This document shows, piece after piece, positions 392-10,342 of a DNA stretch of 64,000 nucleotides (its first letter is position 1; each line of letters begins with the position of its first letter). The notes under the pieces are model-generated. The model made no database searches and was not told the origin of the DNA. It saw only the letters and a list, made by a program, of their open reading frames with translations. This DNA comes from Ignavibacteriota bacterium (GTDB lineage Bacteria > Bacteroidota > Ignavibacteria > UBA10030 > UBA6906): positions 180,604 to 244,603 of the forward strand of contig PMBF01000076.1 of NCBI GenBank assembly GCA_003152875.1. The letters run 5' to 3'. Position numbers and translations under genes: made by a program.

Positions 392-1072
392 ACAACGATA
401 TATTGAGACCACTCGCGGCCCGAGGCAGAAGCCTATCGCTCATCAGAAGAATGGGCCATGCCTGACCATCGCCCTCATCACAAGAGCTGAAGGCGTAAGA
501 TAATTCCCAGGTGAGCGAATGTCTATAGAAATGAATGTCAAGAGCAAAATAATTCCCTTCAACGACACAACAGGGGATTAATTCCAGAAGATTCGTTTCA
601 GGCAGTTCTTTCTTCAGAAACTTCTGCACCTTTCGGGACAAGATCTACAAGAAGAAGCCCCACACGTTGTGAGCATGGGGCTTTGTCTAACTTGTGGCGG
701 AATGGATGAGAATCAGTGACACCTGAAGCCCAGGATGAGAATTCTGGGCTTTTTCATCTCACGCCATTGCTCTGAGCACTTTCGTTGCAATGCAGTCCCG
801 TAGCATAGGAAACAGGGAGAAAAACACAATATATCTGTCAATTGGTGAACTTTTCGGCAATATTCCCGGTTTCGCAGTGTAGAAGGTTTTGAGCAAAAGG
901 GCGTTTTTCGGTTTCCGCCTGCTCCCTCTGGCGGCTCTCCAGTCCTGCTCAGGAGCTTCCCTTCCGACCATGGGAGCACAGTAATTCCTCGCTCCACTGT
1001 GCCAGCACTCATGGCCTGAGAACCGTAATGATCAACCAGGAGTTGGATGTATCTCCGGGTGGTCGTGACATG

Positions 1073-1089
1073 CCCCCCCCCAAAAAAAA
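1073..1089. repeat. Homopolymeric tract C9A8 (CCCCCCCCCAAAAAAAA), about 110 bp upstream of the small plus-strand gene at 1197. A possible slipped-strand phase-variation site.
   Basis: Read directly: 9 C (1073-1081) followed by 8 A (1082-1089). Confidence 0.5.
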
Positions 1090-1196
1090 CGGTTCGAGTA
1101 TTCCATCTCACCGAGCTGGAAACCAGGAAGAAATGGCAGCGTTATTATCGACCATCATCAGCGTCATCAACCCTACAACCATACACAGGAGGCAAC

Positions 1197-1478
1197 ATGT
1201 ACGTTATCGTCCAACACGAGATTTCCAATCCCAAGACGTTCTGGGAAACAGCAAAAACCGCAACAGCCGCTCTGCCATCGGATCTGAAAGTGCACCAGAC
1301 TCTTCCCAACGGGGAAGGGACAAAGGCTGTCTGTCTTTGGGAAGCCCCCGGAGTTGATGTGGTGAAGAAGCTTATAGAAGGAGCGGTAGGCAACGTCAGC
1401 AGAAACACGTACTTCGCTGTTGAGGCCGCAAACGCTATGGGGCTGCCCGCTTCCATCAAAGCAGGAGTGACAAGATAA
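1197..1478 (+). CDS. Small hypothetical protein of 93 aa, possibly DUF3303-like with a ferredoxin-like fold.
   Basis: An internal ATG in the 1047..1478 ORF is preceded by a strong SD (AGGAGG, 5 nt spacer). The translation MYVIVQHEISNPKTFWETAK... is protein-like. No confident family assignment. Confidence 0.55.
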   Translation: MYVIVQHEISNPKTFWETAKTATAALPSDLKVHQTLPNGEGTKAVCLWEAPGVDVVKKLIEGAVGNVSRNTYFAVEAANAMGLPASIKAGVTR

Positions 1479-1613
1479 TCCGTACTACACGGGACGAAGG
1501 ACCGGACGATCCCCACACGTTCGGCCCTTCGCCATCGGCTTGAACGCTCTCATGTTCAAGGCTGAATCCGTCGTGCGAGCGCACCCTGAATTCCGCTGAC
1601 ATTGCAGGAGCGG

Positions 1614-2114
1614 CTACTTTACCTTCTCGATCCTGGCGGCCCAGCCTCCACCGGGTGCCAAATGGATCTTCAACGTGTCGCCTGCTGCCGTCTTTATCAC
1701 CTCTCGTTTGTAATCGGTTGCGTCGCGATCTGCATTGATGCCGTCCTGGAACACTTCCGCAACGTAGGCTCCTTCGGAAAGAAATGAGAGGTTGAGCGCA
1801 AGGTCTCGTGCATCCCAGTTGCTCATTGCTCCCACATACCAGGTATCTCCTTTTCTGCGGGCAAGAGCCACGTACTCCCCCACTTTCCCATCCATTGGCA
1901 CAGTCTCATCGAACGTCGTAGGGACTTTGGTGTTGTTGTCGCGAACGTGCTTCTTGACCATGCCATAGGAGTGTCCGGGGGAATTGTGTTTTGACCGGTG
2001 GAGGGATGGAACTGACACACTCTTCGACCTTCCAGGTGAGAACCACCATGGTGGAACCGGCATGCCGTCAATGTCGTAAGCCTGGTCGTCGACCACACCC
2101 GGTAGTCTGGTCAT
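1614..2114 (-). pseudogene. Truncated C-terminal fragment of a glycoside hydrolase family 97 (SusB-like alpha-glucosidase). It is 166 aa where a full GH97 is about 650-700 aa.
   Basis: Motifs such as GDTWYVGAMSNWDARDLALNLSFL...AEVFQDGINADRDATDYKREV match the GH97 C-terminal domain. The TIM-barrel catalytic part is absent. Confidence 0.5.
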
Positions 2115-2297
2115 GCCGGACTCCCGACAGAACGGCGCTTAAACCCATTGCCTGCGACGCGAGTCTAACCATTTTGCACACTTGCATGTCAATGTTTTTT
2201 CGCGGACGTTCCTTGCAGGGTTTTCTTCAGATGTGGGAGACATCCGCCGGGCTGGACGGGCCAATATCATCCGCGTTGCGTCAGAAGGTTACGTTCT

Positions 2298-2855
2298 ATG
2301 GATCTCGCGACACTGGTCGATGCTCTTTCCTCCGTGCTGATCGCCATCGCGATCGGGCTACTCTGGAGAGCACGGGCCCAGTTCATGAATCTCAAGCCCA
2401 TCATCCCCGCACTGTTCTTCGTCTTGCTGGGTCGGATTAGCGACATCATCCTCGAACATGCCGCCGGAAGCTCCGGACCAACCAGTGTTTCCGCCGGCGG
2501 AGAGCTGGAGCGGGGCGTGGCGATCGCCGGTAATTTCACTGATGCCCTGGGCTTCTCTCTCCTCATTTACGGATTCCTCAGGATCATCCGCGAACACCGC
2601 AAGGAGTTGGAACATATTCAGAAACTGGAAACCCTCCTGCCGCTTTGCGCGCACTGCAAGAAATACCGGTCTCCCGAAAACCAGTGGTTGCCAATCGAGA
2701 AGTACCTGACGGAACATGGGACACCTGATCTGAGCCACAGCATTTGTCCAACCTGCCTTGAGGAATTGTACGGGGATATCCTCGAACGACGGAGGATGAA
2801 AGGAAAAGGAGATATTCCCTCACCACTCCCCCCGGAATCGCCTTCGCCATCCTGA
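2298..2855 (+). CDS. Small membrane protein with three predicted TM helices and a C-terminal CxxC-(26 aa)-CxxC zinc-ribbon module (LPLCAHCKKYR...WLPIEKYL...SHSICPTCLEELYG). This module is also found at the C-terminus of many PAS/GAF sensor proteins.
   Basis: Hydrophobic stretches at about residues 8-24, 35-50 and 75-95. The conserved CAHCKK(I/Y)R...W..IE.Y...H...SH.ICP.C pattern is recognised from memory of sensor-protein C-termini. Confidence 0.6.
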   Translation: MDLATLVDALSSVLIAIAIGLLWRARAQFMNLKPIIPALFFVLLGRISDIILEHAAGSSGPTSVSAGGELERGVAIAGNFTDALGFSLLIYGFLRIIREHRKELEHIQKLETLLPLCAHCKKYRSPENQWLPIEKYLTEHGTPDLSHSICPTCLEELYGDILERRRMKGKGDIPSPLPPESPSPS

Positions 2856-3040
2856 CCGCCTGGCCATCGTGATGCGCCGCACCGGTGAACCATACTGTCT
2901 TTTCCCCGGTCATGAGCATACATTGCAGATGACACAGGCAATTCTTTCAACCTCGCAGGACCGTGATCTTTGCACGTGCGACCTGGCATGCATGGACACA
3001 GGCTGAGCGATCTCTCTTCAGGCTCATCCCCTGACCGGGG

Positions 3041-3778
3041 TCATCGCCGCAACGCCGCCTTCGAAAATAGGTAATCGGGAATAGGGGCATCAAGAGCGAG
3101 TGAATCAACGAGGAATTCTGTCCCCTCTCCTTCCGTGAGGACGTCCTTATACAGCACTGACTTGGCCTGCCATGCGTTTTGAACTCTCATCACCTCCCTG
3201 ACATCGATCGTCTTCAATAGTTTTCCACCTTCCGCGTAAAGGTTTTGTCGCAGTACCACGGCACGCTCCTTGTCCACCCAGATGCGCCGGTGATCGTAGG
3301 CGATATCCTGCCTTTTCGCCTTGAGATCGAGAATCCAGCACTCGCGCCCTCCGACGGTATCGCGGGAGACCACCGTCGCCGAGTAGACGTTGGGCAGGTG
3401 TGGGTCTTCCATCATGTCCTCATAGGAGAGATCCGAGCCCATGACGGATTGGCGAAGCAAGTGGCCCGATATCATGATGATGCGATCGGTAGAGGGAGAG
3501 TAATCCCACAACATGTCCTTGAGCTTGAGCATCTTCGTTCCTTTCTCCCTTGCCGGCGCAAGAAATTCCGTGTACGCCTCATTCGTGCCGCGTTGCCACG
3601 ACTTGGATTCCACTGTTCTGGTCTCCCGGCGTCCGTGTATGATCATGCGCGCTACGGCAATCCTGCGTTCCGAGAACATGTTTTGATCGACCTTCTTCAG
3701 GATCTCATCTCCGGTAGGCCCTGCAAACCCGAACGAAAGGGCATTGAGTGCGATCAACACGGAAAGCGGACGTATCAT
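3041..3778 (-). CDS. Outer-membrane lipoprotein-sorting protein, LolA-like, of the family that accompanies MacB-type ABC transporters. It carries a signal peptide.
   Basis: Signal peptide MIRPLSVLIALNALSFGFA. It sits at the end of an ABC ATPase and two FtsX permeases on the same strand, with a 4-bp overlap to the permease. Confidence 0.55.
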   Translation of the reverse strand: MIRPLSVLIALNALSFGFAGPTGDEILKKVDQNMFSERRIAVARMIIHGRRETRTVESKSWQRGTNEAYTEFLAPAREKGTKMLKLKDMLWDYSPSTDRIIMISGHLLRQSVMGSDLSYEDMMEDPHLPNVYSATVVSRDTVGGRECWILDLKAKRQDIAYDHRRIWVDKERAVVLRQNLYAEGGKLLKTIDVREVMRVQNAWQAKSVLYKDVLTEGEGTEFLVDSLALDAPIPDYLFSKAALRR

Positions 3779-5070
3779 GTTTCAAGTTCCTTGAATAATT
3801 CAGATGTTTGCCGCCTGTAAATGCCGATGCCGGAGATCGTGGTCCCGAGAAATGTGGCAAGCAAGCCCGGAAGAAACCCGATCACATAGGAGAACGGCGA
3901 TATCCGGGCCCGTATGATGTTGGGAAGCATCATCGTGCTCTCCTTCAAGACCGACCCGATATCGAACCCATGCGCCTGAGTATATGCGGCCGCCGCCAAT
4001 CCGGTCGCCGTGCCGGCCACAGCGCCGGCGAAACCGATCATCAGCGACTCAGCCTGCAACGACACGTAGACGTGCTCCTTTTCCTCACCGATCGCGAGAC
4101 GGACGCCGAATTCTCCGTATCGCCGCAGACTTCCCGTCAACCCCGCATTCCATAGGACGATCGACATCGCCACAACGAAGACACCCATGATGACTCCCGA
4201 AAATACATCAACATAGTCGAGATAGTCAGACAGCCCGCTTTGGGTGCGAGGGGTTCCCATGACCGGGGAGAATGCGCCTGTATCACGAGGAGAGTCCCCG
4301 GGATCATTCCTGTGACAGGCATTGAAGACTGCGGTGACCGCATTTGCCCGATCTTCGTGATAGAGATCGTCTGCAAAGAAGCCCAGGATCTCTCCCGCGC
4401 CCCCCTGCATATCCAGGGCCTGCTGTATGTCCGCGAGATCTGCAATCACTGTCGCCTTGTCCATTGCGGCAATTCCGAACCGGACCGTACCGGCAATGAC
4501 GAAATTCATGACGCTCATGCTCCCGTACATGGTCGAACTGATGAATGTGGCGGTGTCGCCAGGCTGGATGCCGAGACGGGCTGCAAGGTCCACGCCTGCC
4601 AGGATTTCCCCGCGGTTTCTTGGCACGCGCCCCTGGACGATGGCGTTTTCGATGTTGAGTATACGCCATTCGGGACTGTCGGGGGAGAGCAGATCGACCG
4701 CCATTCCACTCACGGGAGCCTGTGCCCTCGTCTCACCCTTCTCGTCCGGGATATCCAGAAGTCCCCCGAACTTGATGCGCGGAGTCCAGAGGAGATCCGG
4801 ATACAGGCGGCGCAATTCCGTCATGAGTGTATCGATTCCCAGCAGTCCCAAATCGTTGGGGTTTTGGTCTGCTTCCTTCGCGTAGGCCTTCGTCATCACA
4901 CGAATGTGGCCTGTGCTGTAGTGCGCCGTGGATTCCAGCAGGGATGAGAGCACACCGTTCAACCAGGCGTGCAAGAACACCGTCAAGACGACGCCGGCAA
5001 ACACGGTGAGGAATGGGAACAGGGACCGGGATCGATCGCGCAAGAGACCCTTAAACAGGAAGGGGATCAC
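3775..5070 (-). CDS. ABC transporter permease, FtsX/MacB-like with a large periplasmic domain. The first 198 aa of the 629-aa track ORF are an out-of-frame overlap with the upstream permease and were trimmed; the start is a GTG in a GTGA overlap.
   Basis: The protein-like sequence begins at ...VIPFLFKGLLRDRSRSLFPFLTVFAGVVL. Four TM segments occupy the C-terminal third. The stop of the upstream ORF overlaps the GTG start (ctTGTGTGAtcc). Confidence 0.7.
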   Translation of the reverse strand: MIPFLFKGLLRDRSRSLFPFLTVFAGVVLTVFLHAWLNGVLSSLLESTAHYSTGHIRVMTKAYAKEADQNPNDLGLLGIDTLMTELRRLYPDLLWTPRIKFGGLLDIPDEKGETRAQAPVSGMAVDLLSPDSPEWRILNIENAIVQGRVPRNRGEILAGVDLAARLGIQPGDTATFISSTMYGSMSVMNFVIAGTVRFGIAAMDKATVIADLADIQQALDMQGGAGEILGFFADDLYHEDRANAVTAVFNACHRNDPGDSPRDTGAFSPVMGTPRTQSGLSDYLDYVDVFSGVIMGVFVVAMSIVLWNAGLTGSLRRYGEFGVRLAIGEEKEHVYVSLQAESLMIGFAGAVAGTATGLAAAAYTQAHGFDIGSVLKESTMMLPNIIRARISPFSYVIGFLPGLLATFLGTTISGIGIYRRQTSELFKELET

Positions 5071-6239
5071 ACAAGTTTCCCCCTGAGCGCGTCCACCGGT
5101 TTCAGCTTTGCTATTGTCCTCGTCGGAAGGAAGCTGACGATGGTGGTGACAACGCAGACGAGGAGCGTCGTGCCGATGATCAACGCAGGCGAATAGACCG
5201 GGAAGAGCCTCTGACCTATGGCAACACCGAAGTTGTCCGTCCCGGCGGGGAGTTCGAAGCCTAAGCTCGCGGCGTAAGCGAAGAGTGGAATTCCGTAACA
5301 GGAGCCGAGAATCGCAGCAAGGACGCTGTGAAACGCGCCTTCCATAGTGAACAATTCTATGACCCCTCCCCGGGTCATGCCAAGGGCCATGAGCGTCCCT
5401 ATCTCCTTCCGGCGCCGCCAGATGGAGAGGATTTGCGTGTCGAAAATGGCAAGCATGGCAAGAAACAAGAGGAAGAGGTACATGATGCTGCCCTGAACGC
5501 TTTTCATTCGTACAAGCGAGTGGAGATCCCGGAGAAGAAAGCCAAGATCCTTGAATTCCCACCCTGGCACTTCGTTGAGGGGAACGGCGCTCCTGTTCAC
5601 CACCACGATCGTCGCCTGGTCCGGCAAGTGCGTCAATTCCTGCAGCCGATCCAACGGAATCCACACCTGCTCATTATCGATATCCTGCACGGAGGTCCTG
5701 AACACCTCCACGATGCTCACGTCCCGCGCGTCGTATGTACCGTGAGTATCCCTCCAACGGACCGTCACGACATCTCCCTTCTTCAGCCCGGCGCCTTTTG
5801 CCATTCTGGCCCCAATCAACCCGGGGAGTTCATCATGACCGGTTCTTAGCAGATGCGAAGGGACCGACAGGATTGTCTGGCCGGGATCAATGCCTTTCAA
5901 AAGAATGGACCGGAACCGCCCATGAGGGTAGAACGTAGCAGGACGGATGAGAATAGACGTCGCTGAGGTATCGCTCACCAGCTTCCGCAGCGGCGGCGGG
6001 ATCGGTGCATGGGCGTCTTCCAGCGACAGGGGATCGAAAGGACCGTATGCATTTTGCCAGTACTGTCCGCCGCCGAACAGGGCATCCACGGTGGAGCGTT
6101 CCACCTGGTCGTTCAATCCTTCATAGAGGCCCTGCAGAAAAATGATCGAGACAAACGCAAATGAAAGGGCGGCGACATTGAGCCATGTTCGCAGGCCTGC
6201 ACTGAGAATATTCCTCGCGGCAAGTTTCAGGGTGAGCAT
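5067..6239 (-). CDS. ABC transporter permease, FtsX-like, MacB/LolC/LolE family.
   Basis: N-terminal TM helix, a periplasmic domain, and the C-terminal FtsX 4-TM region ...LMALGMTRGGVIELF...; it is adjacent to the ATPase. Confidence 0.8.
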   Translation of the reverse strand: MLTLKLAARNILSAGLRTWLNVAALSFAFVSIIFLQGLYEGLNDQVERSTVDALFGGGQYWQNAYGPFDPLSLEDAHAPIPPPLRKLVSDTSATSILIRPATFYPHGRFRSILLKGIDPGQTILSVPSHLLRTGHDELPGLIGARMAKGAGLKKGDVVTVRWRDTHGTYDARDVSIVEVFRTSVQDIDNEQVWIPLDRLQELTHLPDQATIVVVNRSAVPLNEVPGWEFKDLGFLLRDLHSLVRMKSVQGSIMYLFLLFLAMLAIFDTQILSIWRRRKEIGTLMALGMTRGGVIELFTMEGAFHSVLAAILGSCYGIPLFAYAASLGFELPAGTDNFGVAIGQRLFPVYSPALIIGTTLLVCVVTTIVSFLPTRTIAKLKPVDALRGKLV

Positions 6240-6242
6240 GAT

Positions 6243-6959
6243 TCACCTCACAGCGAGAGGGGGTTGATCACTGCGTTCGTCTTTCGAGATTCTGCCATCG
6301 ATGAGCGTGATTTTTCGCTTCAGGTAGCCGATCACTTTCTCGTCATGGGTGGCAAAAACAAACGTTGTTCCAAGCTCTTCGTTCAACTGTACCATGGTTC
6401 TCATGATGTGGTGAGAGTTCGCCGCATCGAGATTCGCCGTGGGCTCATCTGCCAGCACGATTTCCGGCTTTTTGACAATCGCCCTGGCGATCGCTACGCG
6501 CTGTCCTTGCCCACCGGACAGTTGGACTGGCCTGGAATCGGCACGATCGGCCAGGCCGACCCATTCGAGGGCTTCTTCGACGAGCTGCCTGCGGCGGGAA
6601 GATTCGACTCCTTGCAGGAGCAAAGGGAATTCGACGTTTTCATACACCGTGTAGACCGGGAGCAGGTTGAAGGTCTGGAAAATGAAGCCGATGTGGCCGT
6701 TTCGCAAGCCCGCCGCCTCTTTTTGAGAAAGAGAATCTATTCTCCTGCCAAGCACTTCGGCGGTTCCGCTTGTTGGCGCGTCGAGAGAGCCGATGATGTT
6801 GAGGAGAGTCGTCTTCCCCGAGCCGCTCGGTCCGACCAGTCCGAGGAATTCCCCTCTAGTCACTGTGAGAGTGACGTCATCGGGCGCTTTCAGGCTAGTC
6901 AGCCCAAGCGAATAGGTCTTCTCAAGGTTTTCGGTCTTTATCAGTGCTGAGTTCTGCAT
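6243..6959 (-). CDS. ABC transporter ATP-binding protein, LolD/MacB-type.
   Basis: Walker [10 protein letters not shown], signature [14 protein letters not shown] and Walker B ILADEPT are all present. Confidence 0.9.
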
Positions 6960-8842: not shown

Positions 8843-10342
8843 TCATCTCAAGACGAGGAGTGACCTCGTGCGTACAACATCTCCCGCCCGCAATTTGTAG
8901 AAATACACTCCGGATGGGAGATGCGAGGCGTCGAACCTCACCTCATGGCTTCCGGCATCCATCTCCCGGTTGATCAGATCCGCCACTTTCTGTCCGAGCT
9001 CGTTGTACACCGTCAGACGGATGCGCACCCGCTGCGGGAGCGCAAACCGGATCGTGGTCGACGGGTTGAAGGGGTTGGGGTAATTCTGTTCCAGCTCAAG
9101 AGAGATCGGGGTGACCGCCTCCTGCGCAGGGACACCAGTGGGATGTGCGGCGAAAAGCTCATCATGCGCCTTCAGGATGACCCCGGGCAAGGCATTTGCA
9201 TTCAGGGCAAAGACTTCAAGATACTGCGCCACCATGGGATCGCCCGTGCCTTTCGGGTAGATCCCGGTTTCAAGCTCGGCCAGGTATGTTGAGTCGGTGC
9301 AGTGCGTGGTGTCCCCCGTTCCTCCGCAGGCAGCACCCAGCCCTGTGATTTCCTCGTTGGTTTGAAATGCGATCATCGTCTTCAGGCTCTCTGCGGCCTG
9401 GACGGTCTCTGTCTCAGCCGGTACACCGGGATAGAGGCTGTTGTTCTGAATCACCAGGTGACCGGGGAACTTCAGGCTGGCAAGTGTCAGCAGCGGCAGG
9501 TTCTGGTTCGGAATTGCGCCGGTGATGACGGAGCCGTCTTCGGCGATTGGAGGAAACGGGTTGGTACTCGCAATGATCGCCACGCTGAACGATTTGTCGG
9601 GAAAACTATTCTTGAACGCGCTGGTTGTGCCGTCCCAGCCTTTGAGCATCAGCGACGGCCTGTACCCTGCAGTCAGCCACGTGGCGACGGCGTCGGATGC
9701 ACATGGGGCCGCGGAGGGTTGCCGCGCGGGCAGATGCAGTTCGTCCGAATCCTTGTTGATCCCGGTCAGCCGAAGGAGAACCACAGCGTCATAGGTGCCG
9801 GCATGTTTGAGGTGAGCAGAGACTGAGTCCAGCATGGAGCTCCACTGAGCCAGGAAAAGCGTGTCCCACGGTGCGGCAATGGTCTCAGGGAGACATGTCG
9901 TATCCACCGGTTTCCGGGTGAAGGAGAAGAAGACCGGCCTGGCGCCGCCGCCGTTCGGCTGGGGTTGAAACAACCAGGACGGCGTATGGTAGTCCGCCCT
10001 TATCGAAAGCTCGACCTTTTTGCCTGCCGAGATTGCGATGTTCATCCACTGGTCCAAGGCGGTCCAATTAAACTTGCCCTTGGCAGGCTCGATATGATTC
10101 CAACCGACGACAAGCACCAGGCCATCGACGCCCGCCACTTTCAGGGAAGTGACCAGCGCTGTCGAGTCTCCCGTCGAGATGGGAAGGGCGTTGCTGTCGA
10201 CATAGATACCCCGCAAATCGGCCACGGTGGGGGTTTGCGTTGGCGATTCAGAAGAGCCGGAGTTCTGGGCAGAAATCGCGGGTTGTATCGCCAGGCTGCA
10301 CCCCACAACGACGAGCGCAATCCCGAGTGTGGTGTTCTTCAT
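8843..10342 (-). CDS. Secreted glycoside-hydrolase-like TIM-barrel protein (GH42/GH35-like fold, family not assigned) with a T9SS (Por) C-terminal sorting domain.
   Basis: Signal peptide; a W..IEP.KG.FNW motif typical of TIM-barrel glycosidases; C-terminus ...LEQNYPNPFNPSTTIRF...GVYFYKLRAGD..., consistent with TIGR04183. Confidence 0.6.
   Translation of the reverse strand: MKNTTLGIALVVVGCSLAIQPAISAQNSGSSESPTQTPTVADLRGIYVDSNALPISTGDSTALVTSLKVAGVDGLVLVVGWNHIEPAKGKFNWTALDQWMNIAISAGKKVELSIRADYHTPSWLFQPQPNGGGARPVFFSFTRKPVDTTCLPETIAAPWDTLFLAQWSSMLDSVSAHLKHAGTYDAVVLLRLTGINKDSDELHLPARQPSAAPCASDAVATWLTAGYRPSLMLKGWDGTTSAFKNSFPDKSFSVAIIASTNPFPPIAEDGSVITGAIPNQNLPLLTLASLKFPGHLVIQNNSLYPGVPAETETVQAAESLKTMIAFQTNEEITGLGAACGGTGDTTHCTDSTYLAELETGIYPKGTGDPMVAQYLEVFALNANALPGVILKAHDELFAAHPTGVPAQEAVTPISLELEQNYPNPFNPSTTIRFALPQRVRIRLTVYNELGQKVADLINREMDAGSHEVRFDASHLPSGVYFYKLRAGDVVRTRSLLVLR

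Follow-up and report, generated by a model that had tools for sequence, protein, structure and literature searches.

A three-transmembrane protein carrying an uncharacterised Cys4 module found at the C-terminus of many bacterial sensors and response regulators

The stretch of DNA analysed here (64,000 nucleotides of bacterial contig PMBF01000076.1, hereafter the window) carries at 2298..2855, on the plus strand, a gene for a 185-amino acid (aa) protein in which three transmembrane (TM) helices are followed by a predicted metal-binding module with four cysteines (Cys4). The open reading frame (ORF) starts with ATG and ends with a stop codon at 2853-2855, and its C-terminal sequence is exactly that quoted in the initial annotation, which had described a three-transmembrane (3TM) protein ending in this cysteine module; AlphaFold2 likewise predicts three TM helices. 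The window contains one copy of the module. The gene is among the few plus-strand genes of a mostly minus-strand region and is apparently monocistronic, having minus-strand genes on either side. A scan of the locus for sigma-70-like promoters and terminators gave nothing useful, the promoter types of the FCB (Fibrobacterota, Chlorobiota and Bacteroidota) group, to which the host probably belongs, lying outside that scan. No Rfam element, riboswitch or other, was detected upstream at E<=1.

Several features bear on the reality of the gene. Gene calls on 16 metagenomic contigs include the identical 185-aa protein, and in an alignment of 25 family members its initiating methionine (M1) coincides with the start of every one. 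Nucleotide differences from a 78%-identical orthologue are distributed 29/13/58 over codon positions 1, 2 and 3; within the module, 18 of the differing codons are synonymous and 6 non-synonymous. Judged from these substitutions, the gene is under purifying selection.

The AlphaFold2 model of the whole protein, computed from a 126-sequence alignment, has a mean predicted local distance difference test score (pLDDT) of 82.6 and places helices at residues 3-27, 35-57 and 65-111, that is, three TM helices of which the third (TM3) is extended (all coordinates below are on the plus strand unless otherwise stated). TM helix 1 (aa 3-27, 2304..2378) has the invariant D8 at its presumed outer end and W23 and R26 at the inner one. 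TM helix 2 (aa 35-57, 2400..2468) is marked by P34, G45, R46, D49 and E53, with E53 invariant and R46 and D49 at least 90% conserved. A short, variable and presumably periplasmic loop follows (aa 58-64, 2469..2489), where the pLDDT falls to 67. TM3 and a cytoplasmic helix of the signalling type then form a single element (aa 65-111, 2490..2630) that includes G78-N79, the invariant D82 and G85, and a LIYGF motif; the heptad a/d positions of this helix continue into P115. At the other end, a non-conserved tail (aa 161-185, 2778..2852), basic and then Pro/Ser-rich, is absent from orthologue P0002.

The distribution of positive charges (R24, R26 and K33 in loop 1; R95, R98, R101 and K102 past TM3) suggests, by the positive-inside rule, that the protein is oriented N-out/C-in, as does the need of a thiolate metal site for the cytoplasm. 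In this orientation the outer-leaflet half of the bundle would house D8, R46, D49, E53, N79 and D82, a polar set resembling a cation or proton site. Since the window protein has no extracytoplasmic domain, its outer loop being 7-16 aa long, the 3TM domain itself might be the site at which a cation, protons or some property of the membrane is sensed.

The Cys4 module, with its accompanying histidine, spans aa 113-160 (2634..2777) and reads LLPLCAHCKKYRSPENQWLPIEKYLTEHGTPDLSHSICPTCLEELYGD. Past TM3, the AlphaFold2 model shows strands at 114-117, 122-124 and 130-132, a helix at 133-140, a strand at 145-148 and a helix at 151-171. The first putative metal knuckle, C117-A-H-C120 (2646..2657), lies in the hairpin made by strands 114-117 and 122-124, directly ahead of K121, K122 and R124, an invariant K-K-x-R group. 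The second Cys pair, in H147-S-I-C150-P-T-C153 (2736..2756), begins the last helix. A model of the module alone concurs, with a pLDDT of 81 overall and 83-94 in the core blocks. The module had been taken for a zinc ribbon, to be confirmed by AlphaFold. The first Cys pair is predicted in a hairpin; the second caps the N-terminus of a helix, so that the predicted fold looks treble-clef-like and not like the classic ribbon of two hairpins, and no significant fold match was found.

Conservation of the module was assessed in three sets of sequences: 126 homologues selected with a hidden Markov model (HMM); 80 genomic ORFs, the best 80 of at least 584 confirmed matches in a pattern scan of one genome per GTDB species, chosen on the first CxxC alone; and 101 cluster representatives. 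The four cysteines, whose conservation the initial annotation had made the test of its proposal, are invariant in all three. P115, C117, C120, K121, W130, H147, C150, P151 and C153 are invariant in both the 126 and the 80 sequences; L110 and R124 are invariant in the former and at least 90% conserved in the latter, and K122 behaves in the opposite manner. Because selection of the 80 ORFs used only the first CxxC, they provide independent confirmation of the second C-P-x-C, of H147 and of W130. Among the 101 representatives, W130 is invariant along with the four cysteines, and L110, P115, K121, K122, R124, H147 and P151 reach 90% or more. Spacing is conserved as well: the distance from the second Cys to the His is 26 residues in 365 of 368 modules, the window's included, and the Trp at +15 is present in 100% of modules. 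Ahead of the module, a hydrophobic heptad (positions -15, -12/-11, -8, -5 and -1) leads into the invariant Pro, which precedes the first Cys by two residues. The family signature can be written L-x4-P-[ILV]-C-x2-C-K-K-x-R...W...E-x-Y...H-x2-C-P-x-C, and the window protein matches it at all invariant residues. Module net charge averages -1.08 (n=355) and is -2 in the window protein. Four invariant cysteines arranged in two CxxC pairs suggest that the module probably binds zinc; iron would also be possible.

The family was defined with a profile, A1, built from six module segments. A word-indexed search with A1 returned at least 3,011 proteins, and when 1.84 billion representatives of 50%-identity clusters were scanned exhaustively with HMMER, 24,410 matched at E<=1e-3 and 19,112 at E<=1e-10. 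The suspicion that the module was uncharacterised held up in profile searches, no Pfam, NCBIfam or PADLOC model spanning it at threshold. The best curated match, Zn_ribbon_HMPTM (PF23545), covers aa 146-164 only, around the CPxC, and at 15.3 bits (E 0.015) falls under the 27-bit gathering threshold; membership of that family was rejected. Two Pfam censuses, of 80 and of 101 proteins, produced no family matching all members. Sequence profiles retrieved no relative in the PDB below E 0.5, fold searches gave no significant match, and PADLOC defence models compared with the window protein matched in 0 families at E<=1. Names in the source databases are generic ("hypothetical", "response regulator", "CheY-like", "PAS domain protein", "sensor with HAMP domain"), and some fragments bear the KO-derived label "RsbU". 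A description of the module was not found in a full-text literature search that covered few subscription journals, and an earlier description is possible.

The best 80 of the at least 584 genomic matches come from Bacteroidota, Ignavibacteria, Spirochaetota, Acidobacteriota, Desulfobacterota and other former deltaproteobacteria, Chloroflexota, Nitrospirota, Cloacimonadota, Verrucomicrobiota, Omnitrophota, Gammaproteobacteria and Clostridia. Cultured carriers among the matches include Desulfoluna limicola, Desulfobotulus alkaliphilus and Dethiosulfatarculus sandiegensis. No match was found in a phage collection, and 72,556 plasmid records yielded a single one, a remnant disrupted by an insertion sequence (IS). 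In that record (Dongshaea marina plasmid NZ_CP028898.1, positions 831-4150) a GAF-domain gene, an IS21 transposase and an unannotated orphan module remnant follow one another, an arrangement that looks like a GAF-module sensor split by the insertion.

Nearly everywhere the module is C-terminal, the motif lying 49-68 aa from the stop in 79 of the 80 genomic ORFs. Beyond the last Cys the family has a median of 16 residues; the window protein has 32. N-terminal partner domains in the 80 ORFs include REC (22), PAS (20), TPR (4), Reg_prop/Y_Y_Y (3) and HAMP (3), and in the 101 representatives PAS (39), REC (11), GAF (5), HAMP (5) as well as SBP_bac_3, MASE3, MASE6 and sCache. One TM segment or more is present in 39 of the 80, and 16 (about 20%) consist of a TM bundle and the module only. 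A motif scan of 181 module proteins found none of the hallmarks of an H-box, a HATPase G2 box, GGDEF, HD-GYP or PP2C, and a single EAL-like string. Identification as a histidine kinase was rejected on the same ground and for want of any HisKA or HATPase_c match in Pfam. These partners, and the missing kinase hallmarks, agree with the initial annotation in placing the module where PAS and GAF sensors would have their kinase. Proteins that combine REC and module retain ordinary receiver sequences, which argues that the module occupies the output position. C-terminal and accompanied by input or transmission domains only, the module is, on its domain context, what a signalling output domain looks like.

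Some module proteins depart from this plan. Six of the top-scoring members (P0127, P0129, P0130, P0131, P0136 and P0144) have two modules per ORF, in two tandem units that each consist of a TM bundle, REC or PAS followed by a module; either tandem paralogues have truly fused or the gene calls may have read through a stop. In P0144 the second module is degenerate and comes straight after the first. Rare proteins of the REC/GAF-PAS-module type extend for about 125 aa past the module (P0221, aa 505-628; P0185, aa 363-507). The P0185 tail aligns over the whole of the SpoIIAA-like profile PF11964 (STAS) at E 0.0077 and 17.4 bits, below the cutoff of 25, and may be a faint hint of STAS-type partner switching.

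The arrangement seen in the window defines a subfamily. A profile of the TM domain alone recovered 27 proteins matching over its full length, 103-185 aa long and most of them 145-185 aa, the shortest looking truncated, and two further weak, partial matches of 87 aa with a query coverage of about 30%. Among all these matches the 3TM domain was found with no other output domain, the search being word-indexed and apt to miss distant relatives. The three genomic members, from Chitinophagaceae (Bacteroidota), Ignavibacteria and Syntrophorhabdales, give the subfamily a range of at least three phyla; scanning metagenomes brought in another 32 loci. From the TM3 motif to the module there are 27 residues in 40 of 40 complete loci. 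Seven residues (D8, R26, F29, P34, E53, D82 and G85) do not vary over 25 members, and five more (G45, R46, D49, G78 and N79) are kept in at least 90% of them. The module of these proteins is a variant of its own (CKKYR, W-x-P-I-E, G-x-P), which implies that 3TM domain and module evolved together; the window protein has all the subfamily features. At about 160-185 aa, the 3TM-module proteins are thus a conserved family and not a one-off. The initial annotation had seen in the window gene a stand-alone membrane sensor of minimal architecture. The module is indeed fused to a 3TM domain only; the architecture is not singular, being that of a multi-phylum family, with about a fifth of module proteins built from TM bundle and module only, and the sensing function is putative, the 3TM domain having turned up with no other output.

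Upstream of the 3TM-module gene, a 166-aa ORF on the minus strand (1614..2114) is the C-terminal remnant of a GH97 gene, as had been noted from the sequence. Its sole match is GH97_C (PF14509; 1.1e-32), and on a 662-position alpha-galactosidase profile it aligns with positions 561-661. GH97_C is the C-terminal oligomerisation domain; the catalytic part, of about 550 aa, is absent from the ORF. The 3TM-module gene occupies the place where this catalytic part would be, and the same holds on contig L001. On the other side, a LolCDE-like operon on the minus strand (3041-6959) converges with the 3' end of the 3TM-module gene. It encodes a LolA_like protein of 245 aa (4.3e-50), two FtsX-family permeases and an ATP-binding cassette (ABC) ATPase; the first permease is 629 aa long in the mechanical ORF list (3775-5664) versus 431 aa in the gene call on identical contigs. 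Neighbouring genes in the window (8843-10342, minus strand) and on contigs L001-L004 and L085 carry Por_Secre_tail domains, used for sorting by the type IX secretion system, and glycoside hydrolase domains. Such neighbours suggest a polysaccharide-degrading bacterium of the FCB group.

Neighbourhood analysis of homologues, proposed as a check on the module's role, brought to light no deeply conserved partner. The window neighbours (GH97 remnant and LolA-like/ABC operon) are missing beside the 78%-identical orthologue. Across 80-85 module loci, generic two-component genes were found next to the module gene in 36 of 85. The order radical SAM, 3TM-module gene, AHSA1, protein of about 240 aa recurs, with short intergenic gaps, in 17 of 41 loci of the 3TM family (L009, L086, L088, L100, L102, L105-L108, L110-L113, L115-L117 and L121); here the radical SAM protein has 350 aa and is AmmeMemoRadiSam-like by eye, and the AHSA1/SRPBCC protein has 135 aa. 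This order is absent from other 3TM clades, which are about 50% identical. Because only proteins 68-100% identical share it, it was attributed to lineage synteny and rejected as functional evidence. At locus L087, a 1,504-aa dCache-HAMP-multi-PAS sensor (1330-5844) lies 157 bp upstream on the same strand, the sole such case among the loci seen.

Comparison with known outputs helps to place the module. As with HisKA/DHp, GGDEF and ANTAR, it stands C-terminal to PAS, GAF, HAMP, REC or TM inputs, and it shares with signalling-helix-coupled outputs an in-register heptad helix, a fixed spacing and the use of one conserved module by many sensors. Unlike HisKA/DHp, GGDEF and ANTAR, to which it has no relation in sequence or fold, it is organised around Cys4 within about 45 aa and lacks a catalytic or phospho-acceptor motif. 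The 3TM proteins resemble LiaS/BceS-type and DesK-type kinases in having a TM bundle with an outer loop of 7-16 aa coupled directly to a cytoplasmic helix; they differ from these in their non-kinase output, in having three TM helices where those kinases have two or five, and in the lack of a conserved ABC transporter or response regulator, the LolCDE-like operon of the window being absent at the orthologue locus.

Among Cys4 fingers of the treble-clef or zinc-ribbon kind, the zinc-binding domain (ZBD) of ClpX and DksA/TraR offer a parallel: two CxxC pairs, one in a hairpin knuckle and one at a helix N-terminus, with a long helix or coiled coil alongside. As a rule these fingers dimerise and bind protein. 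The cysteine spacing sets the module apart, at 29 residues versus about 17-18 in ClpX ZBD and DksA, and both candidates were rejected (hhalign probability 0.4% for the ClpX ZBD and 2.4% for the DksA/TraR C4 finger). Rubredoxin was rejected as well, at an hhalign probability of 2% over 8 aligned columns and with no Pfam Rubredoxin match. The ZAS anti-sigma factors, which are zinc-thiolate, protein-sequestering proteins, have the motif H-x3-C-x2-C and an N-terminal helical domain. The module is like them in its conserved His ahead of a CxxC; it is unlike them in its H-x2-C-x2-C motif, its C-terminal position and its partly beta structure, and with no zf-HC2 match it was not assigned to this group. 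The nearest published analogue that we found is HalOD2, an output domain of halobacterial response regulators with two CXXC motifs 20-25 residues apart, described in few halobacteria only, without an assigned function, and predicted to bind DNA or RNA (PMC5847659). HalOD2 and the module are both REC-associated, helix-preceded, C-terminal predicted zinc fingers. Judged from its description, HalOD2 differs from the module, whose spacing is fixed at 29 and which is found in many bacterial phyla and in many non-REC architectures.

We tentatively favour the reading that the window protein is a small inner-membrane signalling protein, whose 3TM domain is joined to a metal-stabilised, helix-coupled output head engaging a common partner encoded in trans. 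The architecture, the conservation, the size of the family and the association with input domains only are observations. On this reading the module would serve as C-terminal output, or transmitter, to bacterial sensors and response regulators that make up a very large family without a name. TM3 would run unbroken into the heptad helix that ends at the invariant Pro near the first Cys; from this continuity and from the unvarying spacing we propose that when the membrane domain (or, in relatives, PAS, REC, GAF or HAMP) changes conformation, the change is passed mechanically to the metal-bound head. By analogy with other signalling-helix proteins, transmission would most likely take place inside a parallel dimer. 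Movement of the helix would then alter the presentation of a near-invariant surface (K121, K122, R124, W130, E134, Y136 and H147), and the head would switch its binding to a shared partner specified by another part of the genome, a protein being more likely than DNA. Gene-specific DNA binding is disfavoured because roughly half the members sit in the membrane, the module is slightly acidic on average and undiversified among sensors, and it has no linked target gene. A number of points weigh against this proposal. Metal binding, dimerisation and topology are things we infer, and so is what we say of the TM domain as a sensor and of the kind of partner. The near-universally conserved H147 is not explained by a Cys4 site, and nucleic acid, a phospholipid or a nucleotide could be the ligand of the invariant K-K-x-R patch. 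Apart from the two-component genes, no neighbour cluster occurs in more than 7 of the 85 loci, so that a partner was not found in this way, and within the 3TM family synteny is confined to one shallow clade. Finally, the 3TM domain, known only with the module, could be a mere anchor.

Other explanations have to be set against this one. The same K121-K122-x-R124 patch, together with the conserved aromatic residues W130 and Y136, would suit a zinc finger that binds DNA or RNA, in which event module proteins would be one-component regulators, some of them membrane-tethered like ToxR or CadC. Small Cys4 fingers often bind nucleic acids, the analogous HalOD2 is predicted to do so (PMC5847659), and one member, at locus L053, has a weak, sub-threshold HTH_IclR-like tail. 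We consider this unlikely: the mean charge of the module is negative, membrane proteins are unusual among DNA-binding one-component regulators and yet account for about half of the members, the fold match to DNA-binding fingers does not rise above noise, and a module that stays near-invariant across very different sensors cannot encode differing operator specificities. A slightly smaller chance is given to the idea that sensing is done by the Cys4(+His) centre itself, acting as a redox switch of the thiol/zinc type or as an Fe(Cys)4 redox site like that of rubredoxin, which would make the module an input or an integrator and not an output. The spacing C-x2-C-x29-C-P-x-C is the same as in rubredoxin, a near-universal His adjoins the second Cys pair, zinc-thiolate redox switches are well established in the ZAS anti-sigma factors, and the family is abundant in anaerobes (Desulfobacterota, Spirochaetota and Chloroflexota).

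Improbable, in our judgement, is a purely structural role, with the module a cap that staples a coiled-coil dimer by means of a metal, the output lying elsewhere (oligomerisation, sequestration of sensor domains, or a REC phosphate sink) and the window protein acting as a membrane scaffold. The module is small, comes after a heptad helix and has yielded neither a catalytic motif nor a partner, as this would predict; a cap has no need of exposed K, K, R, W, E, Y and H residues invariant across phyla, and it leaves unexplained why 24,410 clusters keep the module as their sole non-input domain. That the ORF might be the remnant of a PAS sensor C-terminus, or a spurious ORF beside a decayed GH97 gene, was suggested by the adjoining GH97 remnant and by the failure to find a sigma-70-like promoter or terminator. 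The third-position bias and synonymous excess described above, the recurrence of the identical protein on 16 contigs, and the same start, size and architecture, across at least three phyla, in 27 full-length TM-profile matches and in 3 genomic plus 32 metagenomic loci make such an origin highly improbable, and we regard it as effectively refuted.

Censuses of bacterial signalling classify proteins by output domain, so that module proteins have effectively been tallied as output-less. About 24,000 clusters from many phyla, with a common Cys4-His-Trp-KKxR signature, amount to a sizeable block of signalling proteins, and both the 3TM proteins and the REC-module regulators of about 200 aa are small enough for direct biochemistry. 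Rather doubtful, and set down here as a wider conjecture, is the possibility that the module marks an unrecognised, widespread output route in which many sensors converge, through the metal-bound head, on a single conserved target. If it were true, this route would run parallel to, and independent of, phosphorelay and cyclic-nucleotide outputs, with the 3TM proteins as its minimal tractable form; and if a single common partner does exist, it would define a new branch of bacterial signalling outputs.
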